A DNA stretch of 64,000 nt, from IMG/VR virus record IMGVR_UViG_3300028833_000074, positions 64,001 through 128,000 of that record; one strand, written 5' to 3'. This DNA comes from a virus. Taxonomy: Duplodnaviria; Caudoviricetes. The number at the start of each line of letters is the position of its first letter. Positions within the stretch are counted from its first letter, which is position 1. The notes under the pieces are model-generated. The model worked only from the letters and a program-made list of their open reading frames with translations. It was not told the origin of the DNA and did no database searches. Positions 30,565-53,992 of the stretch are shown in pieces. Position numbers and translations under genes: made by a program.

Positions 30565-30975
30565 TTATATGTTACCATTCCCATGATATAAATTTGTTTT
30601 TCTAAAATATTTTAAGGGATGAAGCAAATGTAATGGAACATCATAAACTTCATGCAAAAAAATATAATATGTTTTGCGTTTCCATTTAGGATATATTACC
30701 TTCCATTCTTCTACTTGATTGTAATAAAATCGCTTACGTCTTAAACTTTGCTTATGCAATTCTTGGCTTTGCAATGTTAAAAGTCGTTTGATTTCTAAAC
30801 GTAACGAATTCATCTCTCGATATTCTTGTATAGATAAAGGATATTTTAAATTGTAATATCGTGATTTAAAATGTAATATTTTCCGATTAATTTCTTTTTC
30901 TCGTTCATAAAATATTTGATTACGACGTGGTCCTCTTTTTTTACCATGATTACCTTTCTTATATCTTTTACCCAT
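30565..30975 (-). CDS. Highly basic hypothetical protein
   Basis: K/R-rich, 136 aa. Confidence 0.55.
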   Translation of the reverse strand: MGKRYKKGNHGKKRGPRRNQIFYEREKEINRKILHFKSRYYNLKYPLSIQEYREMNSLRLEIKRLLTLQSQELHKQSLRRKRFYYNQVEEWKVIYPKWKRKTYYIFLHEVYDVPLHLLHPLKYFRKTNLYHGNGNI

Positions 30976-33226: not shown

Positions 33227-34586
33227 TAAGTGTGGTATGATACTGATATTGTAAATTTAATTCAAGAGAAATAGTATCTTTTTCATCTTTGGTAAACTCT
33301 TTATCAGAACAAAACTCAATAACACCATGACCCTTATATTCAACATATTGAATATTCGCATGCATTTTCTTATCAAACCAATAAATGATAAAAGTTTTTG
33401 ATTGAATAAATAAATCCTTGAGATATTCTTCTTCGATGATATAACGTTTTAATAGATATTTTGTATAATTCCCCATCAATTTATCAGACATTATTCTTCA
33501 CCTTGATTGACAAATATCAAATTACAATAGATACTACTAATATTACGAATTGGTACAGTATAATTAGTTTTTGATACATCATCAGAATATGTTATCGATA
33601 TAGATTCTGGATGTTTGCCATCCATATCAATAATGCGCATATCATCAAAACTTTGTGAATCTAAAAAAAACATACTATTGTGTAAACCTAATTCAATTTC
33701 AAAATCACAACAATTTTTAGCAGAATTAATTACTTGTATTAAATTTTCAATATCCTTTCTTGTTACACTATGAATATCATTTCTACTAATATCTATATTA
33801 TTAAAATTTTCTTTCATTCCAGAAAAATATTTTCTAAAATTTTCCAACACTATCTCATCTCCTTTGTAATTGTATTTAAATAATAAACAACGACATCTTT
33901 CATCTCTTCTTTTATTAAAGGTAAATCAACATTTTTATCTTTAATGAAATCATTATAAAAATCAAAAGATTCTTCAATTTCATGAAAGATGTCTTCAGTT
34001 GTTATTGGCGCATCAATAATGTCAGATAACATTTTTGATATATTTTGCACCAATAAAATTCCAATATCATTTTCATCTTTATTATATTGCTTAATGGTAT
34101 TAAGTATCAATACCATTCGCTGTTGGTCAGTTAATATCATATTATTCTTTTGCCAAACGATATTTTGTTCTGCCATCTTTTGTCTTGTTAGTTAAGAACA
34201 AAGAACTGCCGGCAAGCAAGGAAGAAACCTTTTGCTTACTTGGTGCGCCACCGACAAAACTAAAAGGTCCTTTTCTTAAATATCCAACGATATTTTCAAT
34301 ATCGGCTTCTGTAAAAAAATATAAATATGATTCAACATAACATTTAATTCTATCATTTTCGCTACTCACCATAATATCTTATCCCCTTACAATAATTTCA
34401 TTATTGTTTAATCTTGTGCATATTTGTTCCATTTCTTCTTGCACTAAAGATTTTGTATCAGCATTAAATTTCATCTCAACAATGTCTTTGTGTTTAACCA
34501 TATCAGTAATCAACATGCGTTGACCACGAATAACAATTTGGTATCTTGCACTATCATTAAGAAAATCATCTATCATCGCTTCAACA

Positions 34587-35057
34587 TTAATTTTGCATTT
34601 CTTCATCTGTATCACCTTGTGAATTATCTTCTGATATAAAAGTTACTATTTGTATATTTATCTTATTATTAACATCAATACCATCAATAATATTATCATT
34701 AATTAATATATTATAATGACCAAAAAGAATATTATCAAATTTAGCCAAACCACGTTCATCGGTTGTTTGTGTTTGCGTAAATGATTCATTTTGAATAACA
34801 ACATCGATATTAGGTAATAATGTATGCATTCCATTATCAACACCAATGAAAACAACACCTATATTATTATCATAAGTCGCTTCATTTAAATTATCATCAG
34901 ATTCAGTATTTTCAATTTCTTCGCAGATAATATATTCATTAATATCTCTATGTGATAACCACTCTAAAAATTCTGGAATAGTAAAATCATGAATTGTTAA
35001 ATCCTTTCCATGTATATTTCCAGATTCACATGCGTTTTTTTTACAACATCTTTTCAT
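34587..35057 (-). CDS. Protein with a prealbumin/Cna-B-like domain
   Basis: 'QTTDERGLAKFDNILFGHYNI' motif. Confidence 0.55.
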   Translation of the reverse strand: MKRCCKKNACESGNIHGKDLTIHDFTIPEFLEWLSHRDINEYIICEEIENTESDDNLNEATYDNNIGVVFIGVDNGMHTLLPNIDVVIQNESFTQTQTTDERGLAKFDNILFGHYNILINDNIIDGIDVNNKINIQIVTFISEDNSQGDTDEEMQN

Positions 35058-35345
35058 TAAATTTCCTCCATATCTAAAATTATATAAAATATTACTTCTT
35101 TTCTATCATGATGCATTTGTATCTTAAAGGTTTTGATATTACAACATCCAATATATTTGTAAATATCATTAACATCAAAAACCCTATGCATTTTTTTACG
35201 ACAGAAAACAATCTTAAAACCACCATTGAAATATTCAATTTTAAAATCTCTTCCAACGTGGTAACCTTGCTCCATTAGAGCATATTCAATCGAATCAAAA
35301 CCTTCTTTGATATTCAATAATTTCACCTCCATCAAGGTATAATAT

Positions 35346-35378
35346 TATATATGACTCGATGTCATATATAAATGTTTC
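35346..35378 (-). promoter_or_regulatory. TATA promoter overlapping a 10-bp inverted repeat (possible operator)
   Basis: tatatatgac-tcgat-gtcatatata; the - strand reads GAAACATTTATATATGA. Confidence 0.55.
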
Positions 35379-35380
35379 TA

Positions 35381-37318
35381 TTATTTTTTGCGCTTGCCCC
35401 ATTGAGTAGGGTCTACAACAAAAGTCTTTTCCCAATCTTCTCCATATGTATCAATCCATTCTTGCATTGTTAAACCCTTGTGAAAGGCAGCAAATTCACC
35501 ATGCTGGTATGCTGTATCAAAATAATGCTGTAAATATGCTAAATTCCTTGCATCAAGTTGAATATTGCGTGGTTTTGAAAATGGTCCACTACGTCTATTA
35601 CCACCAAATGCTTGAATATCTCGCACTTCATCATCAGTTAAAGTATGCTGACCCATTGATGATAGAGCCAATAATTTTGCAACTCGCACCATAGGTTCAG
35701 ATTTCGCAAAAAAATCTTCTTTAGTTGGTAATTCACCATCAATAAATTTACCTTCCTCCCAATTGTAAAATTTACTATCTGGTCTATCTCCCATTACATT
35801 TTTTTTCTGTTTATTGGCTAAACCAACCATTGCTGGCCAATTATTTCCAATATAATGCTCTGGGTTAGCACCACGTAAAGTAACCGGACCATCTTCTTTG
35901 TCTGGTATCCAAACATCATTTTTTGGTCCATGAATAGCATTACGCATTATATTACGTGTTTTATCATCATTCTGACGTACTTGTTCTTCGATAATAGCAC
36001 CTTGCAAATCTGGAGCATAACATAAGGCTACTCCATATTGTGCCTCACATAATTCACAATTTGATGAACAATGATAAATAGGGAATAACTTATATTTGCC
36101 ATCGCCTAATAATTCATTTTCCATATATAAATCATCATCTTCCGCCTCTATATATTCACCTTTAGCATCTTGCGCCACACCAAAAACCATATCATATTCT
36201 TCAAGATATTTTACATCAATACGCCCATCAATATTATCTTTAGTTGTAAATTGACCTTTAGGTACTGGTCGAAATTCATTAGTGGCCATAAAACTACTAC
36301 CCATAATGGTAAATCCTTGTTCAATATTTCTACGCTCATCTTCATCAAGTTCATTCAATTCATCTAAATATTTCAAATATACATCTGTACGATGTGTATA
36401 AATAGTGCTATAAATACGTTTAATGTTATTTTCCTCTTGTCTTTTGGTCCAATATTTTTGTATACGTTCACCTTTACTATTTGTAATGATTCCTTCAAAT
36501 AATTTACCAGCACTACGTGCAATCCATAACAATTCTTTACCACTTGCTACATCACCGGCTTCATTCCATCTAACAAAACGAACAGTATTAGAATTACCCG
36601 GTCCAGTTCGTTGCTTATTTAATAAAGCATTAGCAAAATCTTGTGGGTCAAACTCATGTATCATCTTACGTACCATAGCACTATTTTTGCGTTTACCATT
36701 CTCAACATTACCAATACCGGCAAAAACACCATACTGTATTCTTGTACGAATTTCGTCACCTAATGCATAACAATGTTCACAAAATTCACACATTGAACGA
36801 ACTTTACCATCTGCACCTTGTATCAAAGTGTTTCTTGATACACAATCAACTGCTGGTGATGTATTTATAATCATAATAGATGTGCTAATTGGCTTATTAT
36901 TACCACGTTTTGCGTCAAATACAATACTCTTACCCTTCTCTTTTAATTTTTTTACCTTTAAGGTAAAAGCGCTACCATAAGTACCGCCAATTAACCTTCC
37001 AAATAATCTGGCACGAAATGATTTAGCCGGTCCTTTATCCTTTATTTTAGAATAATATTGCAAATCGGGAACTTTTTGCAATGGAATCACAGCATCGTCG
37101 TCAAGACCTAATGCTTGATGAATGGTTTTATTATATGTAGGCTGCATCTTTGTTTTCTTCTTATCTCGCACATGTGTAACATATACTTTAAGTAATGTAC
37201 GATTTGTAGGATTTAAAGAACCCTCTTCAATTAATTCTTCTGACACATCGTACTGACGTGCTAATTTTTTAATCTCACCCCAACTTATACCTTCAATAAT
37301 ATCGCTATCTTCCACCAT
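35381..37318 (-). CDS. gp88-like (radical-SAM-related Fe-S) phage protein with extensions
   Basis: 'CEFCEHCYA', 'VRWNEAGD', 'YTHR' and 'HCSSNCELC...CY' resemble the mycobacteriophage gp88 family pattern. Confidence 0.55.
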   Translation of the reverse strand: MVEDSDIIEGISWGEIKKLARQYDVSEELIEEGSLNPTNRTLLKVYVTHVRDKKKTKMQPTYNKTIHQALGLDDDAVIPLQKVPDLQYYSKIKDKGPAKSFRARLFGRLIGGTYGSAFTLKVKKLKEKGKSIVFDAKRGNNKPISTSIMIINTSPAVDCVSRNTLIQGADGKVRSMCEFCEHCYALGDEIRTRIQYGVFAGIGNVENGKRKNSAMVRKMIHEFDPQDFANALLNKQRTGPGNSNTVRFVRWNEAGDVASGKELLWIARSAGKLFEGIITNSKGERIQKYWTKRQEENNIKRIYSTIYTHRTDVYLKYLDELNELDEDERRNIEQGFTIMGSSFMATNEFRPVPKGQFTTKDNIDGRIDVKYLEEYDMVFGVAQDAKGEYIEAEDDDLYMENELLGDGKYKLFPIYHCSSNCELCEAQYGVALCYAPDLQGAIIEEQVRQNDDKTRNIMRNAIHGPKNDVWIPDKEDGPVTLRGANPEHYIGNNWPAMVGLANKQKKNVMGDRPDSKFYNWEEGKFIDGELPTKEDFFAKSEPMVRVAKLLALSSMGQHTLTDDEVRDIQAFGGNRRSGPFSKPRNIQLDARNLAYLQHYFDTAYQHGEFAAFHKGLTMQEWIDTYGEDWEKTFVVDPTQWGKRKK

Positions 37319-37334
37319 TTTAAAAACCTTCTCA

Positions 37335-37616
37335 TTATCTATTATTATTCTCTTGTATTAAATACATATATTGTGGATGATTATAACACCAATTCTTTAA
37401 CTCTAAAATACGTTGTTCCATATCATCAAAACGATTCTGATGTATCTTGCGCATCACTTGTTGATATGTTAATGGCTTCTTGCTTTCTAAATTACGCAAA
37501 TATTTAACTGTATCAAACGCTGGTATACGCAATAAAGATGGCACATACTCTTCTAACAATTCAAGTTCGGATACAATTTTTTGAATTTCTGCAAAATTAT
37601 AATAAAAATCAGACAT
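37335..37616 (-). CDS. Small ART-partner protein (paralogue 3)
   Basis: Shares EL..(I/L).(D/E)Y(I/V)P.L and EL..W....P.Y with 40184-40450 and 41665-41934. Confidence 0.75.
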   Translation of the reverse strand: MSDFYYNFAEIQKIVSELELLEEYVPSLLRIPAFDTVKYLRNLESKKPLTYQQVMRKIHQNRFDDMEQRILELKNWCYNHPQYMYLIQENNNR

Positions 37617-37624
37617 TTTTTCAC

Positions 37625-38974
37625 CTAATTTATCAACATAATTTCAACTTGTTTTATATCATGGTTTACACCAATTACTTGATATTTTTGCCCTTTGCCT
37701 AATATAAGTTCATGTAAATCTGTTAATCTTGCATCTGGTACAGCATTCTTATCAACAGATGCAATATGAGAGCCTTTAGGAGCATAAATAGTAATTAAAT
37801 ATTCATCACGTCCATCTTCATGTGCAAATTCAAGCGCAACACTTTTATCAAATGATGCAGATGTAATATATTTAAATTCACCGACATCACCAACTTCAGC
37901 ATTTTCATCAAATCTACCGCCCCTATAAAATATCGTATCATTTTCTACACCCGGCAACATACTAATCATCTCATTTAAACTCTCACTATATTCTTCAATA
38001 CTTTTAAAATATTCTGGGTCATCTCCATATTTGCGTATAAATTTTTCTTTAGATTCCTCATCTCCATATACATATTTGCCATAATAATCACCTACAGTAT
38101 AAGTCATATCTAATACATATTTAGAAAGATTTTTATAATAATCATACCATTCATCCTTAAGATTAAAAATACCTTGTGTATCCCATTCAAATACTTTACT
38201 TAAATGCACATTATTTGCATAAGCATTGACTTGATTAATAATTAATGAACGTTCTTGGTCTCCCCATTGAGTATGTGAGCGTCTGTCATTAATTAATACT
38301 TCTTCATAATCCGAACGATAATTTCTCAAGTCAATAATTTCACCATTAACTTCACGCATCCACATACTGCCATCTTGCATACTTTCCAATCTACGTATAT
38401 GTTCATCTAAAAACTCTAAATAATCCTCTAAATTTTTAATACCTTTCAAATAATTATTCTGGCGACTCACCATATCCGCAAATTTTGTATCTAATCCATC
38501 TTCAACTTGTGGTAACATTGCTTTAACTTGCCTATAGGAATACATCATCATATTACCATATGTTGATGGACCAAATTCATCAGCAATTTCCTTAAATCTT
38601 TCTCGAGTTAATGGCATACGCAAATAATCCTCTGGATACTTATTTTTTAATGATTCTAATCTTTCTTGAGCATATTTCTTAAATAATTCATCCCCCAATT
38701 CTTGCGCTGACTGATTAGTGTTTGTAGCAAACTCTTCATAAAAATCATCTTCAAGACCGGCTTCCATTAAGCCAACTCGAAAATCAAATTCTTTACTACC
38801 AAGTTGCTTTTGAACAATAGGAATCAATGCCATCTTTTCATCAAAAGTTAATTTTTTACGTTTTCTAACTGTATGATTTTTAATGGTCACTTCACCACTA
38901 AAATTATCTAATGTTGATTGACCTTGCACTCGTTTAGTGATACGTCTATTTTTACCTTGTCTTCTACGTGCCAT
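37625..38974 (-). CDS. ADP-ribosyltransferase, VIP2/Alt-like C-terminal domain (paralogue 4)
   Basis: 'FYRGG', 'ITSASFDKSVA..F', 'APKG', 'LHELIL' give an R-S-E fold; basic N-terminus. Confidence 0.85.
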   Translation of the reverse strand: MARRRQGKNRRITKRVQGQSTLDNFSGEVTIKNHTVRKRKKLTFDEKMALIPIVQKQLGSKEFDFRVGLMEAGLEDDFYEEFATNTNQSAQELGDELFKKYAQERLESLKNKYPEDYLRMPLTRERFKEIADEFGPSTYGNMMMYSYRQVKAMLPQVEDGLDTKFADMVSRQNNYLKGIKNLEDYLEFLDEHIRRLESMQDGSMWMREVNGEIIDLRNYRSDYEEVLINDRRSHTQWGDQERSLIINQVNAYANNVHLSKVFEWDTQGIFNLKDEWYDYYKNLSKYVLDMTYTVGDYYGKYVYGDEESKEKFIRKYGDDPEYFKSIEEYSESLNEMISMLPGVENDTIFYRGGRFDENAEVGDVGEFKYITSASFDKSVALEFAHEDGRDEYLITIYAPKGSHIASVDKNAVPDARLTDLHELILGKGQKYQVIGVNHDIKQVEIMLIN

Positions 38975-38984
38975 ACTATCTTTA

Positions 38985-40190
38985 CTATCTGTTTTGCCAT
39001 TTTCGCTTCATATCATCATCAATCAATAACACAAGGGCCTCACGATTAACTGTGTCAACTGATAATACAATAAATTCTTGATTCAAACTATGAATAAACT
39101 CACTACGACCAGTACTCGTATGAAACCACATTCCTAAATAACGCTGAATTCCAGCAGAAATACCTTTAGTACCTTTAGGAGCCAATATAGTTATCCTATA
39201 ACGTTCACTTTTTTCACTATCAAGACGTTGATAACTTTTATAAATATCTTCTGAATCATAAGAACTAAAAGCAAAACCAGCAAAATTAGATATATCACCG
39301 GCTTTTAATTCTTGATGATTAAATAAACTACCAAATCGAATAAGAACTGTATCAACTTCTAAACCGGGAGTTTTATCAATAATACCTTGAACAGCATTAG
39401 TCACACTCGTAATGTAATCAATATCCCAATCCGATGATACCCCATCACCTTCAAATATCTCCGCCCAATATTGAGCGATGCTACGCCAATTACCTCGCTG
39501 AAACTCTGTTAAAGTCTCATGAATATATTCCAAACGACTATCTGTATCATACTGAACATTTTGCATAAAAGCCGGTAACATTTTACGCACATGAGTGGCT
39601 TGAACTTCACCAATTATATCCGCTCCTATATCTTGATAAAAAGCATTAATATTTATTCCTAATACATCGGCAATTTCATTAGATATTGATTGAAGATTTC
39701 CATCTTGTTGCCAATGTAATGATGTATTATATACAGAAGCAGTATTCGGTACTTCCGGTAAAAATATTCGACCGGAAAACATAGGATTATCTTCATAATT
39801 ATCCGGTGAAAGAGTTGGGTCCCATGCTATTGCATCTTCATATTCCATAACTTTTGGACCAAATTCTTTTTGCAATTCTGTCAAAGGATGTATATTTATT
39901 GCTTGAACATAACGTTTTAAGTCCATTTCATCTGCCAAATATTTTTTCCAATCCCACCAATCACCTTCATATTCTTCCATTTCTCTACGATAATCTATGA
40001 TTTCATTATGCAAATCTTCAACATCTACAGACTCTCTCCAACGTAACCTTTTATTAACAGTAATAGTTTGACGATTACCATTACGTATTTTAATATCCTT
40101 ATTTACTTTTGGCGCTTGTCGATTTTTATATTTTCTTTTCATCAATTCAAGTCTTGCACGCCTTTTACGCTCTTCGTATGAATCTACCAT
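38985..40190 (-). CDS. ADP-ribosyltransferase-like protein (paralogue 3, divergent motifs)
   Basis: 'LIRFG', 'AFSSYD', 'ILAPKGTKG', 'RSEFI'. Confidence 0.7.
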   Translation of the reverse strand: MVDSYEERKRRARLELMKRKYKNRQAPKVNKDIKIRNGNRQTITVNKRLRWRESVDVEDLHNEIIDYRREMEEYEGDWWDWKKYLADEMDLKRYVQAINIHPLTELQKEFGPKVMEYEDAIAWDPTLSPDNYEDNPMFSGRIFLPEVPNTASVYNTSLHWQQDGNLQSISNEIADVLGININAFYQDIGADIIGEVQATHVRKMLPAFMQNVQYDTDSRLEYIHETLTEFQRGNWRSIAQYWAEIFEGDGVSSDWDIDYITSVTNAVQGIIDKTPGLEVDTVLIRFGSLFNHQELKAGDISNFAGFAFSSYDSEDIYKSYQRLDSEKSERYRITILAPKGTKGISAGIQRYLGMWFHTSTGRSEFIHSLNQEFIVLSVDTVNREALVLLIDDDMKRKWQNR

Positions 40191-40450
40191 ATCAACACGT
40201 CTTTATATTGTGGATAATTATCGAGCCACGTGATAAGTTCTTGCATTTTTTCTTGCTCGCTGAATAATGTGGATTTGCTTAAGCGTCTTCTGATGCTTAC
40301 TTCATCGGTTGCAGAACAAAATTCTTCAATATTGTCAATCCATAGACGATATTCAAACCATTTTGTACGCAATAAAGAAGGAATGTAATCACGAATGTAT
40401 GGCAATTCATCGCTAATAGAACAAATATAACTTTTATTGAGGTTTGGCAT
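40184..40450 (-). CDS. Small ART-partner protein (paralogue 2)
   Basis: GGGGG RBS before ATG 40450; 'DELPYIRDYIPSLLR...ELITWLDNYPQY'. Confidence 0.75.
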   Translation of the reverse strand: MPNLNKSYICSISDELPYIRDYIPSLLRTKWFEYRLWIDNIEEFCSATDEVSIRRRLSKSTLFSEQEKMQELITWLDNYPQYKDVLIW

Positions 40451-41654
40451 ATGGTTGCCCCCTTCTGCTTCTATATTGGTCACCTTCATTTAATAATAAA
40501 ACAGTAACAATATGATTTGTAACATCTTTTTCCAATACAACATATTTTTGATGCGCCATATTAAAAACTTCTCCGGCACTATAGTGATAACCTTTAAAAC
40601 GTGAAGCAGCGTTTACTGCTGCTAATTTGCTTTTTTCTGGTGCATATACCACATATAACCAATTACCCCTATCGGCATAAGCCTCTGCAACATCACGCTT
40701 AAAACTAAAAGACGTTGGAGATTTAAACTCTGAAATTTCACCCACTTCTAATGTTTCATCAAAAGGTCCACCCCTAAAGAGCATAACATCTTCGGGAAGC
40801 CCCGGCAATTGTTTAACAACATTACTGATACTATCAATCATCCATTCCATATACTCAAACTCCTCTTCCATATATTCTTCTAAAGTCATATCTTTATTTG
40901 TATGATTATATCTATTTTCTACCCCATTGTTATAATCTTGAATCATCTCTTCCATAACCTTTACTTTTTGATATACAGCACGATTAATAGTGGCGGATAT
41001 ATCGTTAAAGAAGTTTTCAATCGGCCATAATCCATCTTTACCACGAAACGACATACCATCAATATTGATATCAGCATCACGTTGTAGTTCAATTAATTCA
41101 AATTCCATATCAGTTAAAAAATCAGTAAAAGGGTCGCCTTTCATTCTTTCTAAATGGCGCATTACTATTGGATAAGCAGCATTATAAAAATCATCATCTA
41201 AATTATCCTTTAAGAATTTTTGAAATTTTGGTTTTACAGTCTTAAAATAACTTTCTCTTTTATATTGATATAAACTACGCTTCATTTTAAAATTTTCGTG
41301 CGCCCAGTCATCTAACAAGTCAGACTTTGCATCATACAAGGCACCCGGCATAGCATCAATAATAACTTGACGTGGAACTACAAAACCATCATCAACAATA
41401 TAACTATCCTTAAAGAAAAATTCAAAATCTTGTATAACTGGAGATTCCCAATCAATAAATTCTCTACTTTGACTTGGACGTGTATTTTTTACACGTTTAG
41501 TAAATTTTTGTAAATCTTCACCTTTGGAACTTTTAAATACTGCACGTGTGGCTGTTGTATCTGTTTCAACTTCCATACTGCCAATCGTAGCCCCAACTTC
41601 AACTATAGTATTTTTACGTACATTAATATTACGTTTTCTTTTTCTTCTACCCAT
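40434..41654 (-). CDS. ADP-ribosyltransferase, VIP2/Alt-like (paralogue 2)
   Basis: 'LFRGG', 'PTSFSF...VA', 'YAPEK', 'AGEV'. Confidence 0.8.
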   Translation of the reverse strand: MGRRKRKRNINVRKNTIVEVGATIGSMEVETDTTATRAVFKSSKGEDLQKFTKRVKNTRPSQSREFIDWESPVIQDFEFFFKDSYIVDDGFVVPRQVIIDAMPGALYDAKSDLLDDWAHENFKMKRSLYQYKRESYFKTVKPKFQKFLKDNLDDDFYNAAYPIVMRHLERMKGDPFTDFLTDMEFELIELQRDADINIDGMSFRGKDGLWPIENFFNDISATINRAVYQKVKVMEEMIQDYNNGVENRYNHTNKDMTLEEYMEEEFEYMEWMIDSISNVVKQLPGLPEDVMLFRGGPFDETLEVGEISEFKSPTSFSFKRDVAEAYADRGNWLYVVYAPEKSKLAAVNAASRFKGYHYSAGEVFNMAHQKYVVLEKDVTNHIVTVLLLNEGDQYRSRRGQPYAKPQ

Positions 41655-41664
41655 AGAATATCAC

Positions 41665-41934
41665 TTATATAATAAATTTCATATATTTGGGATTTTCATG
41701 ACACCATTTGGCAAGTTCTTCATATTCAACTTCAACATCAAATTGATTTTCTCGCATTTTTTGCAGCATTTGATACTGTTTATTTCGCACGTCATCATAC
41801 ATATTATGTTTTTTTAAATTATCATAATATCGATTCATATCAAAAATATAATGCGTAATTAAAAAAGGAATATAATCCGGTATCATTTCTAATTCTTCTT
41901 TTGCCTCTTCGATTAAACTATAATTAATTTGCAT
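41665..41934 (-). CDS. Small ART-partner protein (paralogue 1)
   Basis: 'EELEMIPDYIPFL...ELAKWCHENPKY'. Confidence 0.75.
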   Translation of the reverse strand: MQINYSLIEEAKEELEMIPDYIPFLITHYIFDMNRYYDNLKKHNMYDDVRNKQYQMLQKMRENQFDVEVEYEELAKWCHENPKYMKFII

Positions 41935-41942
41935 AAAAAACC

Positions 41943-43118
41943 TCATATCTTAAAGTTATCATCTATTAATAACACTTCTACAACTTTTACTTTATTACGT
42001 TCGTTTGGAGTAAAACGACCTATTCTGGGGCGTGTATCAAACACAAACATATCATATTCTTCGTGAATACTCATCACATAAAATTTTTGATTAGGTGGAA
42101 ATGTAACTTCATGTTCACCCCCCCAACCACGAAACGCTGGGGATGATGCATGCAGACCACGCATACCTTTAGGTGCATGTACAACAATAATATATCTGTC
42201 CGGTTCTGTACCGGCAAATTCTTGCGCAACATCAATATTGTATGATGTTGATGTTGGCACTAAAAACTCACCAATATCACCGACCTTTAATGAAGCATCA
42301 ATAGTACCACCATGAAAAAAGGTAATATCTTGTGATAATTCTGGCGCTTTTGAAAAGGCACTTTTAACACCATCTATCATTGGAATAATTTCTTGCTCTA
42401 AATATTTTTTTTGTTCAGAGATACGCATACTGGCCATTTTATCATTAAAAGAACGTACGTAATTATTATCATTAGATACTCCATGTGTATGTAACATATA
42501 TCCTTTCATATTATAATACGAACCACCATAATATTGATTCATACCCCATACTTCATTATCATCAAAATACATAGGAGTTTCTATTAGAGGAGTCAATTCT
42601 GATGCTTCTAATCTTGATGTGGTATCAACAACATCACTAAAATTAAAAGCATCAATATCAATATTGTTTTTTGCTAATGTTTCTAAAACTTTAGGGTCAC
42701 GTTGTCCTTGACAAAATTTTATTAACTCTGGTATTGTTTCTAATTTACGTTTCTTAATACGCTCTTGCTTTTGAGCCATAATTTTAGCATTTTTATCTGC
42801 AATTTTTTTATGAATCAATGCTGATTCTAATGCATTAATATCAAGACCAGCATTTAACATAGCCATATCTAACTCATCAGCGTTTTTAGACTCGTTAACA
42901 ATACGAGAATACTCATCAAAATCCATTAAGTTATTTAATATATAATCACTATAAACTTTTGAAAAAATTCTTTTATATTTTTGTTGTAATTTTCGTAATT
43001 TTCTTAAATGATAATTTGATATTTTTCCACGATTATAAATCGTTACACTATTCTTTCCACCACGAGCCTTATTTGCTTGTCCTACACGTTCCCTTGAATG
43101 TGATGTAAATCTTGCCAT
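41943..43118 (-). CDS. ADP-ribosyltransferase, VIP2/Alt-like (paralogue 1)
   Basis: 'FFHGG', 'PTSTSY...A..F', 'APKG', 'GEHEV' (ExE motif). Confidence 0.85.
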   Translation of the reverse strand: MARFTSHSRERVGQANKARGGKNSVTIYNRGKISNYHLRKLRKLQQKYKRIFSKVYSDYILNNLMDFDEYSRIVNESKNADELDMAMLNAGLDINALESALIHKKIADKNAKIMAQKQERIKKRKLETIPELIKFCQGQRDPKVLETLAKNNIDIDAFNFSDVVDTTSRLEASELTPLIETPMYFDDNEVWGMNQYYGGSYYNMKGYMLHTHGVSNDNNYVRSFNDKMASMRISEQKKYLEQEIIPMIDGVKSAFSKAPELSQDITFFHGGTIDASLKVGDIGEFLVPTSTSYNIDVAQEFAGTEPDRYIIVVHAPKGMRGLHASSPAFRGWGGEHEVTFPPNQKFYVMSIHEEYDMFVFDTRPRIGRFTPNERNKVKVVEVLLIDDNFKI

Positions 43119-43121
43119 AGT

Positions 43122-43148
43122 AAAGATTTCCTTGATTTTTTGCGAATT
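43122..43148. repeat. Degenerate copy of the dispersed 32-bp repeat
   Basis: aaagatttccttgattttttgcgaatt, immediately upstream of the first ART start codon. Confidence 0.6.
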
Positions 43149-43203
43149 TTATTTGATGTCCTATATAAGTACTTCTATATTCGATAGTATATAAACACCT
43201 TTT

Positions 43204-43242
43204 AAAAAATAAAAAAAAGAACGCAAGAAATTAATCTTGCGT
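43204..43242 (-). terminator. Hairpin plus U-tract after the adhesin-like gene
   Basis: acgcaaga-aattaa-tcttgcgt with an upstream A-run on +. Confidence 0.6.
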
Positions 43243-43806
43243 TTATGCTTTTTGGAGATACTTGCGACTGTATCCCATCTTCTCTTTTCCGCAATTGCCA
43301 CAAAAATCGCTGTCACATCTTGAACAAGTCAGTTCTCGTTCATGACGTGCGTTGTGCTTGTGTGCATTATATATAGTTCCATAATGGTGGCAATTCGGGC
43401 AATAACTGACGTATTTTCTTGTTCGCCAAGTGTACGATTTTGAACAGCGTCCACAACTTGGTTTACAAGTAATTGATACTGTCGGTTTAGGAATTGTAAA
43501 CTTGCCTTTTGTTGTGACTTTTTTATATTTCTTGTCACCGGCAAATTTTGCTGTAAAAGTATGTGTGCCAATTTTAGAATAAGTTGTTTTTACTTTTGCA
43601 ACACCTTTGGCATTTGTTGTTGCATGATAGTTCGAGCCTTTTACAGAAAACTTAATTTTCTTTCCTTTAATAGCCTTGCCTTTTGCTGTTGTTAACGTGG
43701 CGTATAAGTTTTTGCCTTTTGATTTGACAGTTAATTTAGTTTTTTCAACAGTCTCATCGCTTACAGCAGCAAGCGGCACAAGAGTTCCTATTATAAATAA
43801 TATCAA
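43243..43806 (-). CDS. Secreted adhesin-like protein (Ig-like domain + Cys-rich C-terminus)
   Basis: Signal/TM segment ending 'AAVS', Methanobrevibacter adhesin-type repeat 'GKAIKGKKI.F...TTNAKGVA...F.GD..Y', and multiple CxxC. Confidence 0.7.
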   Translation of the reverse strand: MILFIIGTLVPLAAVSDETVEKTKLTVKSKGKNLYATLTTAKGKAIKGKKIKFSVKGSNYHATTNAKGVAKVKTTYSKIGTHTFTAKFAGDKKYKKVTTKGKFTIPKPTVSITCKPSCGRCSKSYTWRTRKYVSYCPNCHHYGTIYNAHKHNARHERELTCSRCDSDFCGNCGKEKMGYSRKYLQKA

Positions 43807-43942
43807 TATGATTGATATTATTATTTGATTTGTTTTAATGTTTTCAATAACACGCTCCTATGTGCGAGCAAATGCATTTAAACTCGAGATTTATTATTTT
43901 GTTGTCTAAAACATATAAATGTCTTATACTTAACTTTTTTAA

Positions 43943-44137
43943 TTATTCTGAAACGACTCCTTTATTTTTGGAATCTTTAAAGATTAATTCTCCTTTTTCG
44001 GTTATTCGATATTGTGGCTCTACAGTTATTCTTTCCCTACAAGAAAAACATATATATTTTTCAACTTGTGTAATATTATTTCTGCTTAATAATCTTAATG
44101 TAGCCTTTCCACATCTTGGACATATCATTATACTCAC
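43943..44137 (-). CDS. Small zinc-ribbon protein
   Basis: CPRCG...CFSC; GAGGTGA RBS. Confidence 0.6.
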   Translation of the reverse strand: MSIMICPRCGKATLRLLSRNNITQVEKYICFSCRERITVEPQYRITEKGELIFKDSKNKGVVSE

Positions 44138-44333
44138 CTCTCATTATTGTATATTAAATTTTAACTTGTATCTTCGCCTATTAAGACGATAGAAAAGTTA
44201 TATTTTTCTGTTTTATTGATATCAGAAGTTAATGAAATTCGACTGGCTAATCCTATGTTTGATGATGTGATGCATACCTTTACATCCATATCATCATCAT
44301 ATTGTTGTAATATTTCTTGTAAATGTTTGTTTT

Positions 44334-44621
44334 TCATTTTATTCTCCTATCCCATATATTTCGATTTAATTCTTTTTCTTTTTTATCGGTATGGTCCGGC
44401 ACCATATTATAGGTGGTGCGCCAACAAGTTGTTTTGTGGCATTTTGGGCAAGAAACATATTTTTTATCTGAAAATAAAAAAAATATCTTAAGCAAGAAAA
44501 AAGGAAAGAAATTATCTGTGCCGCAATAATTACAGCGCAGATTATATTTTTTATATAATTTTCCTTGTTTAATTTTTGTTGAAATCACACCATTCACCAT
44601 CCTTAATACGTAAATATACAC
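44334..44621 (-). CDS. Small zinc-ribbon protein
   Basis: CNYCG...CPKC. Confidence 0.5.
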   Translation of the reverse strand: MYIYVLRMVNGVISTKIKQGKLYKKYNLRCNYCGTDNFFPFFLLKIFFLFSDKKYVSCPKCHKTTCWRTTYNMVPDHTDKKEKELNRNIWDRRIK

Positions 44622-45025
44622 CTAAATCACTAATGATACATAAATATGAAATACCTTTAACCTCTAAAAATAATTCCATTGTATCATTGACCTTGATGCG
44701 TATAAATTTTTTATGGTCACGAAAATACTCAATTGCAGTATGCATATGAATATTGTCAACTTCAAGATGCATATACATATTATCACCTATGATAAATAAA
44801 GAAAATCACCTACAAATACGTCATCTTCACAAAAAGGCACATAAAAATCATCTTTATGAAAATCAGCCAATATTGTTTCACATGGCAATCCATGACAGTC
44901 ATTGTATACACATACATTAACATTACCATATTCTTCTTGACATTTTTGTAGATATTCAATAAGTTCATCTAACATCATATTTTCACCCTTACTTATATAT
45001 ATGACATTTATAGTATATATACTTT

Positions 45026-45057
45026 AAAGATTTTCTCTATTTTTTGCGAATCTGATT
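45026..45057. repeat. Dispersed 32-bp repeat copy
   Basis: aaagattttctctattttttgcgaatctgatt. Confidence 0.85.
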
Positions 45058-45817
45058 ATTGCACTAATCTTCATTTCCATCCCATTCGTGTATATGGCTT
45101 CTTGTACTATATGTTGAGCCACTTCCTTCTTGCACAACAATAATAAATTCACCAATCTCACTATCATATGTGATATAATCAATATCATAATACATATCTT
45201 GCTCTTTGATTACAACATTCACCGGCAAATTAGCGCCTAATTGAGCCAACCTTGCAATAATCTCTAAACTCATCATCATTGTATCACGCTTTATCATTCA
45301 ATATCGCAACTACCTCTTTGATATTTAAAGCCCTATTTGTTTCTGTATCCCATATCGTATTCACATATTGGTCAGATATCTTATATCTATCACTTTTAAA
45401 CACTTTAAAATAATCTTTCCCATTTTTCCATTCCATCCAATCACTCATCATCTTCCCTTTCGCTATTGGATTCCACTACAAAATATTTCTTCTCTAAATA
45501 TGGACAGTCTTCCCATAAGACAAAAATATCATTGCTGTGCAAACAATTTGGTTTGCAAATATATTTTTCATCTGCTTCTTCATTATATACGAAATATTCA
45601 CACCAAGTGCAAGTTGGTGGCGCTTCAATAATTCTTTTGTTGGCATTGCGAATTTCTTCTTCCAACATTTTAATCTTATCTTCTTGCTTATTCAATAAGT
45701 CGCATACATCTTTTGCACCATAATATGTTAGACAAATGGTCACCAATTCTTTATCGACCACATCATAAACCATTATCGGTTGTCCATCTGCATCGACATC
45801 AATCATATATCTTGACA

Positions 45818-46693
45818 TTATAAATCACTCCTATTGTTTTCATTGTATAATTGGAAATATTTCGGCTCTAATCTGTTATATAGTTTTACAACCATATTCT
45901 TTTCTATCAAATTGTACACTACACTATATATGGTATACTCAAATTTATCTTGCACATCTGTAACGCCATAAATTTGCTCAACGCTGCCAAGCAAATGCAT
46001 TGTTTCATTAATGGGGCTAAAGATATCTTCGCAATTATTTAAGCAACCAAGCAAGTAAGTAAGACGCTCGAAACGCTCATCTGATGAGTATCCACCGGCA
46101 AGTCCATCGGTTTTGCGCCCCCTTGAGTACCATACTGGGTCATTGCCATAATTAGATACACTATCTCCAATCATACTTAAGCCGAATTCACAAATATCTT
46201 TTTGCAATGGATATGGGGGATTATTGGTCATCACATCATTATGATATACTTTTAAGCCATCAATGGTTTGCTCAACAATGATAGCATCGTTCTCATCACA
46301 AATAAACCAATGCATATCAGTATTTTGTATTGTATCTGAATAGTTCTCATTGGTGATATTTACATCAATAAGCCATTCTTCAACTGTAGCAACATCCCTA
46401 AATTGTCCTAATATTTCAAAAACAAATTGATATGCTGGTATATTTATCATAAATTCTTCTGGCTCATTATAGTGAGCATTACCAGTAAACGCTAATGCCC
46501 CACAAAATAAGCCACATTCATTAATCCCATCATATAGAAGGGGATATTCTTCGGCTATTCCACTACATATTCCTAAAATTGCGAATCCACTATCGTATTC
46601 GTCTCTTTTGATTTTTATTATTTGCTCTTGGTAGGACATTTCATAGTCAAAATTCCTACCGACGCAATGTTTATATTTCAATGCGGTACACAT
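45818..46693 (-). CDS. Choloylglycine hydrolase / linear amide C-N hydrolase (bile salt hydrolase-penicillin V acylase, Ntn family)
   Basis: N-terminal M-C-T nucleophile, 'GRNFDY', 'DGINECGL', 'HWFI.D', 'MTNNP', 'LAGGYSSDERFER', 'YTIYS'. Confidence 0.9.
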   Translation of the reverse strand: MCTALKYKHCVGRNFDYEMSYQEQIIKIKRDEYDSGFAILGICSGIAEEYPLLYDGINECGLFCGALAFTGNAHYNEPEEFMINIPAYQFVFEILGQFRDVATVEEWLIDVNITNENYSDTIQNTDMHWFICDENDAIIVEQTIDGLKVYHNDVMTNNPPYPLQKDICEFGLSMIGDSVSNYGNDPVWYSRGRKTDGLAGGYSSDERFERLTYLLGCLNNCEDIFSPINETMHLLGSVEQIYGVTDVQDKFEYTIYSVVYNLIEKNMVVKLYNRLEPKYFQLYNENNRSDL

Positions 46694-48131
46694 CTTATTC
46701 ACCCACTTTAAAAAAAATCACCATAACAATAATCAATGACATCAATAACACAAAAAATAACCATATATCACTTATCATCAATAGATATAACAGTAATTCC
46801 CACATTTAATTATCCTCTCTTTCTTTTAATTCATCATCAATCATTTGCTTAAGATTTTGCAAATCATCAACAGTAAAATATTCTAAAGGCAGATATTTCA
46901 ATTGCATTGTAATGGCAAACATAAGAAATCGACTATCAAGGGTTGTTATTTCATCATATAATGTAATGCAATCATCGATACGATTTACTTCATCAACAAA
47001 ACATTCCCAACTAACTGCTGTATCCCATAAGAATTTTTGACCCCAGTTTGTATCTAATGCAATATTCATCTGCTCTTCAAGCAAAATAGCCCAATCAGAT
47101 AAATATTTGTCCAATTGCTCTTGTGTTAAATCACTCATTCATATCACCTTGCATCTTCTTTAATTTTCGTATTTCATCTTCTTTTTCATTTAGTATTTTT
47201 ACAACTTGTTTGCCTAATCTTTGATGCTTAATTGATGTCATAATAGCACCATCATTTTCATTATCAACTATGAATCCAGTTGATTCCTCATATTCATACC
47301 TATCCATATCAATCACTCAAGTTAATAATAACACGACATATATAGAAAATAAACCAAAAATATATTATTATGAAAACCAGCCAACTTAATCCCATAAGAT
47401 TGAAGACATATGTTGCCAAGTATATGCCACTTCCTAATACCACGCACATAAACAACAATACAAGCAAGTAAGCAAGAAGTTTAATCCAATCCATTTTATT
47501 TCAACTCCACTTTTCTGCTGTTTAGGTCATCGACCCATTTTTTAAGTCTATAATCACGAACAACATATTTGTCATGTCCATCATATGATGCAAACGCAAC
47601 TATAACATGAGTATCTCTATCTATAATGACCCATCGCTTATTGTCAACATCATCTTTAAGGGCATATCTCTCTTGCCATTGATAAAAATCATTTACCATT
47701 TTATCAACTGCAAACTTGTTATCAGTAATATATGCACTTGTATCATCAATTGACTCTAAAAAATCTACAAAGTATTTCGCTTCCCAATCCCATAAAGAAT
47801 TTAACGCTCTTTCGTTTTCTATTGTATGTTCCATATTATCTTCTCTTAAACCATAAATAATCATATCTTCTATGAAAATCATATTTTGCTGTATGAATCA
47901 TCGGATGTTTTACCCAATGTCCGCCGGCATTTTCATCTTCGGATTCAAAAAATAAATCTAAATCATCAATTTTAAACCATTCTGTAGCAAATGTTTTATA
48001 TGGTCGATTCTGACTTCTAAACATTGGGCAACTAAATGGCCAATTATATGATGTTCGTTCATCCCAATAATCCTTTAATTTGATGCGATTACAAAATCTC
48101 GCCCAAGCATAAAGGTAATCTCGGTCTTTTC

Positions 48132-52770: not shown

Positions 52771-53286
52771 CTAAAATCCATATTTTTGCATTTCTGCATC
52801 AAGTGTTCGCCATCCAACACCATTCATACTTTTTGCCACAACATCAATGGGTTCATCAAGCAATAATATTTTATGTACTGCAAGACGCTTAATGCGTTTT
52901 TTCAATATCATATTTTTCTTGTTTTCTTCTGCGACCATTGTCATAAAAAAAGTAAGCCAAAGCAATAATGTGTCTTCTGCATATTTTTGAGCAACTTTTC
53001 TGCAGACATCCACACATTGCCTTTTTGCTTCCAAATCCCAATTTTCAGTTACAACATCATACACCAAACAAAAAGAATCATACACATATTGCGAACCATA
53101 TTGCTGTTTTAAATAGTATAATTCTTGAAAATAATCAATATCTGTTGGTCTTTTCGCATTGCCATTGGTGTCTTCAATATAAACACACCATTCATCAAAA
53201 CTACCAACATCAAAATATATCTTATATCCATTGGACAATTCAAATCCCCTATTATAGTTCACCACTTGTGTAAATTTTCTTATCAT
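52771..53286 (-). CDS. Hypothetical protein
   Basis: Likely start MIRKF at 53286; 'FDVGSFDEWCVY', 'MVAEENK', 'KRIKRLAVH'. Confidence 0.6.
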   Translation of the reverse strand: MIRKFTQVVNYNRGFELSNGYKIYFDVGSFDEWCVYIEDTNGNAKRPTDIDYFQELYYLKQQYGSQYVYDSFCLVYDVVTENWDLEAKRQCVDVCRKVAQKYAEDTLLLWLTFFMTMVAEENKKNMILKKRIKRLAVHKILLLDEPIDVVAKSMNGVGWRTLDAEMQKYGF

Positions 53287-53360
53287 TTTTACATCAATCC
53301 ATATATTATGAAAGACAGTAATAATACTAATATTACAATAAGTATGATAATTCCAAAAGT

Positions 53361-53392
53361 AAAGATTTTCTCTAAATTTTGCGAATCTGATT
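53361..53392. repeat. Dispersed 32-bp repeat copy (inside ORF 53289-53576)
   Basis: aaagattttctctaaattttgcgaatctgatt. Confidence 0.85.
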
Positions 53393-53992
53393 TGGGGTCG
53401 GCTTGAAGCCATTGCAAAATCACGAATGCTTGAGAATAATTTAGTCCATAGGCAGTATTGCCATTTTCATCGGAGATGTTGTAGTATGGTTCGTTCGTAA
53501 TTTTATCAACAGATTCTTCCAATGTATATTTACTCATCCAATTCACCATATTTGGCTTTGTACAGATGCAAGACATAACTTCTGCAGAAATATAATATCA
53601 AAAAGCCAGTTGATAAAAAGATTTCCCCTATAAGATAAGTGCTTATTCTATGTGAAAAAATGGTCTGCAAAAAAATCAATACCGAAAGCACTACACAAAA
53701 TACTCCTACGATTTCGCAAACATTTGCTATCATCATCTTATTCATTTATATCACCATTATAATTTATGTAAAATTTTATTTTTTATCATATATAAATATT
53801 GTTATTTTTACTACTTTTATTAAAAATAGTCATTACATATATATGTCCTACCATTTTTTTGGCATTTTCGCACAAAAGTATGAAAAAAAGCAAAAAAGGA
53901 GCAAGGAAATCGCTTCTTTTGAAGTTGAATATCGTTTCTTTGGGCTTCTTTTTGATTTCCTTAAACCGATTTTTTGGGCAGTCAGATATATT

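Follow-up and report, generated by a model that had tools for sequence, protein, structure and literature searches.

The systems closest to the locus considered here are ADP-ribosyltransferases (ARTs) of phages and bacteria, some of which are encoded next to a small ORF or an immunity gene. Our subject is an array of four ART genes (ART1-ART4) interleaved with three genes for small paralogous proteins (S1-S3), which was found in a 64,000-nt stretch of viral DNA, called the window below, comprising bases 64001-128000 of a 152,284-bp IMG/VR virus (record IMGVR_UViG_3300028833_000074) rated complete by CheckV. The C-terminal domains of the four large proteins are predicted to adopt ART folds of a well-known clade, ART and S genes appear to evolve and to be exchanged together as two-gene cassettes, and one S gene occurs alone, without any ART, in a defence island.

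Polymorphic MuF toxins of temperate phages consist of a conserved N-terminus joined to an exchangeable C-terminal toxin domain, which is an ART in 14% of cases, and they include the E. faecalis EFV ART toxin; an open reading frame (ORF) that is small (<150 aa) follows in 89% of cases and was proposed to be an immunity gene, and delivery of the toxin together with DNA was proposed as well (Jamet et al. 2017, PMC5576092). The present system resembles these loci in that a small ORF (<150 aa) directly follows ART1, ART2 and ART4, in that toxin and small gene are exchanged together, and in that an orphan small gene exists. It differs from them in that its ARTs carry neither a Phage_Mu_F nor any other Pfam domain, the array lies outside the packaging module, the host is archaeal and four paralogues stand in tandem. 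A basic leader of 33 aa occupies, in the ART1 slot, the place where MuF toxins have their conserved N-terminus. The S proteins are unrelated to any described MuF immunity family, and an immunity role is a proposal in both the window and the MuF systems.

The T4 enzymes Alt, ModA and ModB reprogram host transcription and translation, and Alt is packaged and injected (PMC10468400; PMC2988021); for virion-packaged phage ARTs, delivery to the next cell has been proposed (PMC9503650). Like the lytic phage T4 with its set of three ARTs, the virus studied here encodes several ARTs in one large genome, but the T4 genes are scattered or paired, whereas the window holds a four-gene array with distinct N-terminal modules. 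The T4 ARTs belong to the same broad R-S-E clade, and we know of no dedicated small partner genes for them.

Among toxins, C3, VIP2 and Certhrax (PF03496) share with the window ARTs the fold, as predicted for ART4 over ~245 residues, and the order of the Arg, S-T-S and Glu motif positions, while the window proteins stay below the Pfam cut-off, have non-canonical residues and bear N-terminal modules unrelated to the binding domains of binary toxins. In Tre1-Tri1 (6drh) and Lmo0066-ARH (8za7), an ART toxin structurally similar to ART4 has its immunity gene adjacent. Orphan immunity genes are a known theme for interbacterial toxin-immunity pairs of this sort. However, the Tri1 and ARH immunity proteins are ADP-ribosylhydrolases of ~300 aa or more, whereas the S proteins are helical, only 83-103 aa long and without a fold match. 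No match to PF03747 (ARH) or PF01661 (Macro) was found in the 152-kb genome, with positive controls firing, and this sets the array apart from Tre1-Tri1 and from DarTG, an ART-type toxin-antitoxin system (PMC9503650).

In the literature searched, the ARTs of archaeal viruses appear only as annotations, for two haloarchaeal viruses (PMC8651126), and no paper links ARTs, or ART arrays, to methanogen viruses; the main methanogen-virus compendium lay outside it, and a prior mention there is possible. What is new here is the S family, an archaeal virus with a four-fold ART array, and an S gene found as an orphan within a defence island, while the ART and toxin-immunity logic itself is known from phages. 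Little is known about how methanogen viruses take over their hosts, and four ARTs with different conserved active-site loops might serve as probes for essential archaeal targets in rumen methane makers. If the S proteins were inhibitors, they would represent a new, very small ART-inhibitor fold, and the host-encoded orphan would be an example of defence by effector neutralisation.

Fold and catalytic signatures of the four ARTs

The C-terminal 125-148 aa of the four proteins are 31-33% identical to each other, and a first-pass annotation of the window had read them as ART domains. Direct scans of the proteins gave little: all Pfam matches stayed below cut-off, the best being that of the ART1 C-terminal domain to PF03496 (15.4 bits, E 0.012, cut-off 23.4), PHROGs, NCBIfam and PADLOC returned nothing above threshold, a six-frame PF03496 search of the genome was silent, and tblastn of ART4 against 50,697 phage records found no match. 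We also searched a profile built from the four C-termini against 1.84 billion representatives, which yielded 565 relatives (E<=1e-3), 192 of them with E<=1e-10. PF03496 (ADPrib_exo_Tox) was recognized in 29 of the 46 relatives scanned (best 4.6e-19) and Phage_Mu_F in six of them. The profile reaches its relatives at E 1e-29 and weaker, and the homology of the window ARTs to PF03496, by way of these relatives, is a transitive one. In a PDB sequence search with the same profile, the sole and marginal match was the Lmo0066 ART (E 0.61).

ART4, the single ART whose structure was modelled (AlphaFold2; pLDDT 80.8, pTM 0.76), gave 102 Foldseek matches in the PDB at E<=1e-3, and the top ones listed are ART toxins or ART-like folds, among them Certhrax, CDTa, C3, iota Ia, VIP2, Tre1 and the Listeria Lmo0066 ART (E 3e-7 and weaker). 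The independent VIA aligner placed Certhrax (Z 13.5; root-mean-square deviation 4.2, 194 residues aligned) and Vis (13.5) first, followed by C3stau2 (13.0), Lmo0066 (8za7; 12.6) and VIP2 (12.5), with Tre1 (6drh) at Z 9.5. These structural matches, together with the transitive profile homology, bear out the annotated ART fold, and we regard the C-terminal domains of the window proteins as real, albeit predicted, members of the R-S-E clade (C3/VIP2/Certhrax-like).

The aligned part of ART4 covers aa ~205-449 (~245 residues) and is larger than the conserved block, since it includes a helical lobe as well as the beta core. It was right to describe the N-terminal regions as dissimilar, but the helical lobe of the ART domain had wrongly been counted as part of the variable N-terminus; because the ART fold of ART4 spans aa ~205-449, the unrelated N-terminal part amounts to ~200 aa. 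These ~200-aa regions showed no homology between paralogues by BLAST or by hhalign profile-profile comparison, and they evolve faster than the catalytic part. In ART4, residues 44-200 form a separate helical bundle, confidently modelled, with generic structure matches only. All four proteins start with a very basic leader (isoelectric point, pI, 11-12), and in basicity these leaders rank 2, 4, 5 and 13 among the 197 ORFs of the genome. Throughout the ART1-slot variants the 33-aa leader is nearly unchanged, whereas identity over the remaining sequence is 28-39%. The most basic N-terminus of the genome (net +8 in 30 residues) belongs to a 136-aa ORF at window positions 30565-30975 (minus strand), which has no sequence kinship to the ART leaders.

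A common set of R-S-E motifs had been described for all four domains. The catalytic Glu is indeed present in all of them, as it is in 180 of the 181 relatives ungapped at this position (191 aligned), but the remainder of the description does not hold throughout: Arg is replaced by His in ART1, S-T-S by F-S-S in ART3, ART2 reads APEK and not APKG, and a full E-x-E is found in ART1 only. The signatures are H/S-T-S/E-H-E in ART1, R/S-F-S/A-G-E in ART2, R/F-S-S/R-S-E in ART3 and R/S-A-S/L-H-E in ART4. Thus, S-x-S is present in ART1, ART2 and ART4, Arg in ART2-4, and the first E-x-E position is taken by Ala, Arg and Leu in ART2, ART3 and ART4, respectively. Among the 191 aligned relatives, the Arg position is occupied by R in 134 and by H in 27, and the first E-x-E position by E in 134, by Q in 29 and by L, A or R in 9.

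Each odd signature is kept by the orthologue group of its paralogue across lineages that are 62-82% identical overall, and the ratio of nonsynonymous to synonymous substitution (dN/dS) of the ARTs against a close relative is 0.12-0.45 (0.23 for ART2 against the near-identical virus L005). For these two reasons the signatures appear to be selected variants and not products of decay. The idea of a diversified set of paralogues is thereby sustained, each ART having its own conserved catalytic signature. The acceptor residue of C3-like and VIP2-like toxins is determined in part by the first E/Q of their ARTT loop, and we infer by analogy that the four ARTs may have different acceptor specificities, or that some of them have NADase-type activity. 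The possibility that ART3 is a decaying pseudogene was rejected, as the gene is intact in four lineages and dN/dS of its C-terminal part is 0.25-0.37, i.e. under purifying selection. In the ART tree the four orthologue clades are resolved, their branching order is not. The ART1-slot variant of L005 (L005:3495-4643) sits on a very long branch; it has lost the A-P-K-G loop motif while His, S-T-S and E-R-E are kept, and it may be a recently imported or a fast-evolving effector.

The S proteins and their pairing with ARTs

The seven ORFs, four ART paralogues and three small ones, were confirmed where they had been annotated, on the minus strand at 37335-43118 (Table 1). They are tightly packed: ART1 and S1, ART2 and S2, and S2 and ART3 overlap, and the remaining gaps are 8-16 nt. 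The longest ORF for S2 spans 40184-40489 (101 aa), but its orthologues begin at Met14, hence a length of 88 aa is most likely. In the whole 152-kb genome, the ART C-domain profile matches exactly four times (E 8e-50 to 3e-58), whereas for S the number of profile matches is exactly three (E 4.5e-35 to 6.5e-33). The earlier statement that each ART comes with a cognate partner fits the gene order at ART1, ART2 and ART4, which are each directly followed by an S gene, but it fails literally, because the genome contains no S gene that belongs to ART3.

S1-S3 are homologous to each other (BLASTP E 5e-5 to 3e-11), so that the small proteins are one family, as had been claimed. They are mildly acidic (pI 4.6-6.1); the model of S3 (pLDDT 84.7) has a helical fold of ~90 aa, and dN/dS of S3 is 0.03. 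No Pfam, PHROGs, PADLOC or NCBIfam family matched them. The fold matched no solved or viral predicted structure (Foldseek PDB E>=2.3, VIA-wide Z<=3.8, BFVD E>=1.9), and a look-up in a protein atlas gave no usable feature match. A widened S profile retrieved just 15 clusters out of 5.8 billion, and searches of IMG/VR, GTDB genome contigs and JGI metagenomes did not find the family. Every viral S found (~14 pairs from at least five lineages) directly follows an ART. Judging from these searches, S is a new and narrow family, evolutionarily locked to ARTs.

The array is not confined to the window. The full order ART-S-ART-S-ART-ART-S-645 (the last being the 645-aa gene p645) is kept in contigs L005 and L013, and in L006 and L007 as far as these contigs reach, and partial arrays were found in L008-L012. 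L019 and L020 carry single pairs, in which the gene upstream of S was confirmed as an ART. The most informative case is L014/L015, a different virus. Its single ART is canonical (R, S-T-S, E-H-E; PF03496 on record), and the gene immediately behind it encodes 101 aa with a match to the S profile (E 9.9e-11). The S proteins of L014/L015, L019 and L020 are only 14-33% identical to the window copies. Because a different virus carries a single canonical ART and S pair, the two genes appear to form an old module that was amplified in the present virus clade.

A comparison of the window with L005 suggests how such modules change. At the protein level the neighbouring genes of these two near-identical viruses are 95-100% identical, and ART2/S2, ART3 and ART4/S3 are 90-99% identical; however, ART1 is only 28% and S1 48% identical. 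At the DNA level the flanks are 96-100% identical, and identity drops to ~40-70% between ~43030 and 41745, with one breakpoint in the leader of ART1 and the other in the C-terminal tail of S1, both of them conserved stretches. As read from this alignment, ART1 and S1 were exchanged as one unit, in the way in which polymorphic toxin loci replace their toxin/immunity cassettes.

An orphan S gene and the possible roles of S

One member of the family is not viral by its surroundings. The 89-aa protein P0170 is of the S2 type (E 5.6e-20; identity to viral S2 56-64%) and occurs on at least 24 contigs. Its gene stands by itself there, preceded by an upstream region of its own, with a complete Azaca system (ZacB; ZacC E 1.4e-293) on one side and a type I restriction-modification (R-M) system on the other. 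No ART remnant was detected in this island by tblastn, and the genes around P0170 lack homologues in the virus. That the orphan is a piece of an integrated copy of this virus was ruled out, since DNA similarity is limited to 165 nt inside the S gene and its neighbours lack viral homologues. A segment of 4.8 kb is common to the island and the 110-kb rumen contig L024 (95% DNA identity), and because L024 carries other defence cargo at the same place (GmrSD and another type I system), the locus bears the signature of a variable defence hot-spot. An SseB-family protein of L024 has its nearest Atlas clusters in Methanobacteriota (score 0.92), and the orphan S probably resides in a Methanobacteriota genome, although this is a lead and not proof.

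The occurrence of an S gene without an ART formally speaks against the tie between the two that the first-pass annotation had proposed. Nevertheless, the context of the orphan suggests an orphan antidote rather than independence from ARTs. An antidote is also easier to reconcile with it than a chaperone, because a cell gains nothing from a chaperone for an absent enzyme but does gain from an antidote to a virus-borne one.

Two genes of the opposite strand flank the orphan S, one for a 285-aa protein with a weak NucS_C/PD-(D/E)xK-like signal (L022:13529-14386, minus strand) and one for a 240-aa protein without family match (L022:15013-15735, minus strand). Both always accompany it, and the three genes may together form an uncharacterised defence module. 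L024 also encodes a 340-aa ADP-ribosylglycohydrolase (L024:5922-6944, minus strand), which scores best, though below the equivalog cut-off, against the NCBIfam model of the Tri1 ADP-ribosylarginine hydrolase (E 1.8e-41). Its neighbours are four SseB-family paralogues, a ParE toxin, GmrSD and type I R-M genes, and the enzyme could serve the putative host to remove ADP-ribosylation made by the virus.

The explanation we prefer, in which we place about even confidence, is that the ARTs are viral host-takeover or counter-defence effectors with different targets, that the S proteins are their cognate neutralisers, and that each pair behaves as a toxin-immunity cassette. Under this explanation, each of the four ARTs would consume NAD+ in modifying a different host target, either for takeover or for counter-defence. 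Each effector starts with its basic leader, continues with an N-terminal module specific to the paralogue and ends in a catalytic domain of the C3/VIP2 type, the active-site loop of which differs between paralogues. S would be made by translational coupling with its ART and would hold the enzyme inactive in the producing cell, e.g. until packaging or release; the ARTs would act once delivered to the next cell, and the basic leaders would fit a delivery signal. ART and S would evolve and recombine as a two-gene cassette, and a host lineage would have captured a lone S2-type gene in its defence island, which would blunt an incoming ART2-type effector. That the ARTs are active enzymes, what they modify, that S binds and inhibits them, that they are packaged and what the orphan does are points which we infer here from sequences and predicted structures.

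Several observations weigh against this explanation. ART3 has no S of its own, there being three S genes in the whole genome, and S has no sequence or fold likeness to any known immunity, antitoxin or chaperone family. The array sits in a non-structural minus-strand block, outside the virion genes, and co-translation of an inhibitor at 1:1 requires an extra step (packaging, release or degradation) which is not evidenced here. To our knowledge, no inhibitor takes part in the action of those viral ARTs that have been characterised (T4 Alt, ModA, ModB). Some of the window ARTs may be NAD+ hydrolases or may have lost transferase activity, as three of the four lack the first Glu/Gln of E-x-E. Moreover, physical linkage by itself could explain why ART and S diverge in a correlated manner, and the taxonomy of the orphan contig comes from a single embedding-based look-up.

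A bolder version goes further and is, in our opinion, tentative and rather doubtful. It states that S proteins are a new class of small proteinaceous ART inhibitors, that rumen methanogens captured one of them, the orphan of S2 type, into a variable defence hot-spot as a new kind of antiviral defence which neutralises a viral effector and does not attack viral nucleic acid, and that the ART array with its swapping cassettes is the visible half of an archaeal effector/antidote arms race.

On the other hand, the S proteins might be helpers and not inhibitors, i.e. chaperones or adaptors that keep the ART soluble or unfolded for capsid loading and ejection, or that provide target specificity or activation, much like the small acidic class I chaperones encoded beside type III secretion effectors, or the host co-factors of ExoS and cholera toxin. 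We consider this unlikely. It would agree with S being small, mildly acidic, helical and encoded directly after the ART with translational coupling, with the conserved, very basic ART leaders, which resemble a delivery or packaging signal, and with the fusion of six of 46 ART relatives to the head protein MuF; packaging of ARTs in virions is, besides, reported to be common in phages (PMC9503650; PMC5576092). However, a helper has no obvious use for a cell without an ART, and many contigs nevertheless retain an intact S2-type gene by itself in the defence island. ART3 also manages without its own S, and no fold likeness to secretion chaperones was found, although such an absence is weak evidence.

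It is less probable still, and in our view improbable, that the pairs are toxin-antitoxin-like addiction or exclusion modules, in which loss of a labile S would let the ART kill or arrest the cell, thus stabilising a carrier or lysogenic state or excluding competing viruses. ART-type toxins do occur in toxin-antitoxin systems (DarT, ParT), the layout of a toxin with a small partner, the translational coupling and the cassette exchange are also typical of such loci, and the orphan S lies among defence genes, adjoining a nuclease-like gene. But it would be unusual for addiction modules to come four to an operon in a 152-kb virus that has lysis genes, no DNA-binding fold that might serve autoregulation was detected in S, and the genome has no Macro or ARH antitoxin-type domain. 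Furthermore, no integrase or partition gene turned up in the annotated window and the 18 kb upstream of it, no genome-wide search having been aimed at them.

Finally, that S has no functional tie to the ARTs, being a small viral gene duplicated in tandem with its neighbours and kept for an unrelated role (e.g. as a regulator or an anti-defence protein of its own), is the least probable of all, for although one S occurs without any ART, ART3 lacks an S, and linkage alone can account for correlated divergence, the order of ART then S holds even in L014/L015, L019 and L020, where S is so dissimilar to the window copies, the recombination breakpoints enclose exactly ART1 and S1, and no viral S was found that does not follow an ART.

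The virus, its host and the surroundings of the array

The virus has a GC content of ~31%, and its genes include those for NrdD, a split DnaE and the large subunit of an archaeo-eukaryotic primase. Tail-fibre genes and a gene for a pseudomurein-binding repeat (PMBR) protein (PF09373, E 1.6e-9, above cut-off) lie shortly upstream of the window. Because the virus encodes this PMBR protein, its sequence points to a pseudomurein-walled methanogen (Methanobacteriales) as the host, and the assignment to a methanogen virus made in the first-pass annotation is upheld. A search for Peptidase_C71 gave no match, but its controls were silent as well. The related contigs come, going by sample names, from rumen and ruminant-gut metagenome sets.

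Table 1. Coordinates of the array and associated features (window positions unless another record is named)
Feature	Coordinates	Strand	Description
Operon leader, intergenic	43119..43242	-	Hairpin and T-run, then TTTATATA box ~70 nt before ART1 start; read from sequence
ART1, 391 aa	41943-43118	-	Basic 33-aa leader, unrelated middle region, ART domain with His / S-T-S / E-H-E
S1, 93 aa	41665-41946	-	Small helical partner; start codon overlaps ART1 stop (ATGA)
ART2, 406 aa	40434-41654	-	ART domain with Arg / S-F-S / A-G-E, kept in four lineages
S2, 88 aa	40184-40450	-	17-nt overlap with ART2 end, 7-nt overlap with ART3 start
ART3, 401 aa	38985-40190	-	ART domain with Arg / F-S-S / [R,N]-x-E; without own S gene
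ART4, 449 aa	37625-38974	-	Leader aa 1-40, helical bundle aa 44-200, ART fold aa ~205-449; Arg / S-A-S / L-H-E
S3, 93 aa	37335-37616	-	Small helical partner; 8 nt after ART4, GGTGA ribosome-binding site ahead
p645, 645 aa	35381-37318	-	Cys-rich protein; 16 nt downstream of S3, same gene string
PMBR repeat protein, 369 aa	G000 52776-53885 = L025:6777-7886	plus	Adjoins tail-fibre-repeat and BspA-type LRR (leucine-rich repeat) proteins; Methanobacteriales host-range marker

The hairpin and T-run in the leader of the array are likely a terminator, and the TTTATATA box is likely an archaeal promoter; an Rfam search of 34000-47000 gave no match. The array probably opens a transcription unit of its own, which continues into p645. 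No Pfam, NCBIfam, PADLOC, PHROGs or PDB relative was found for p645. Its gene accompanies the array in L005, L011 and L013, and with identities of 99%, 81% and 45%, respectively, it is as variable as the array.

The gene directly upstream of the array (43243-43806, minus strand) codes for 187 aa comprising an Ig-like domain (Big_1/Big_3_5) and, at the C-terminus, a tail rich in Cys; it is conserved at 86-98%, and a hairpin with a T-run follows it. Further away, at 45818-46702 on the minus strand, this methanogen virus encodes a protein of the choloylglycine hydrolase family (CBAH, PF02275, E 2.5e-42), and a CBAH gene was likewise found in the related single-ART virus L014.

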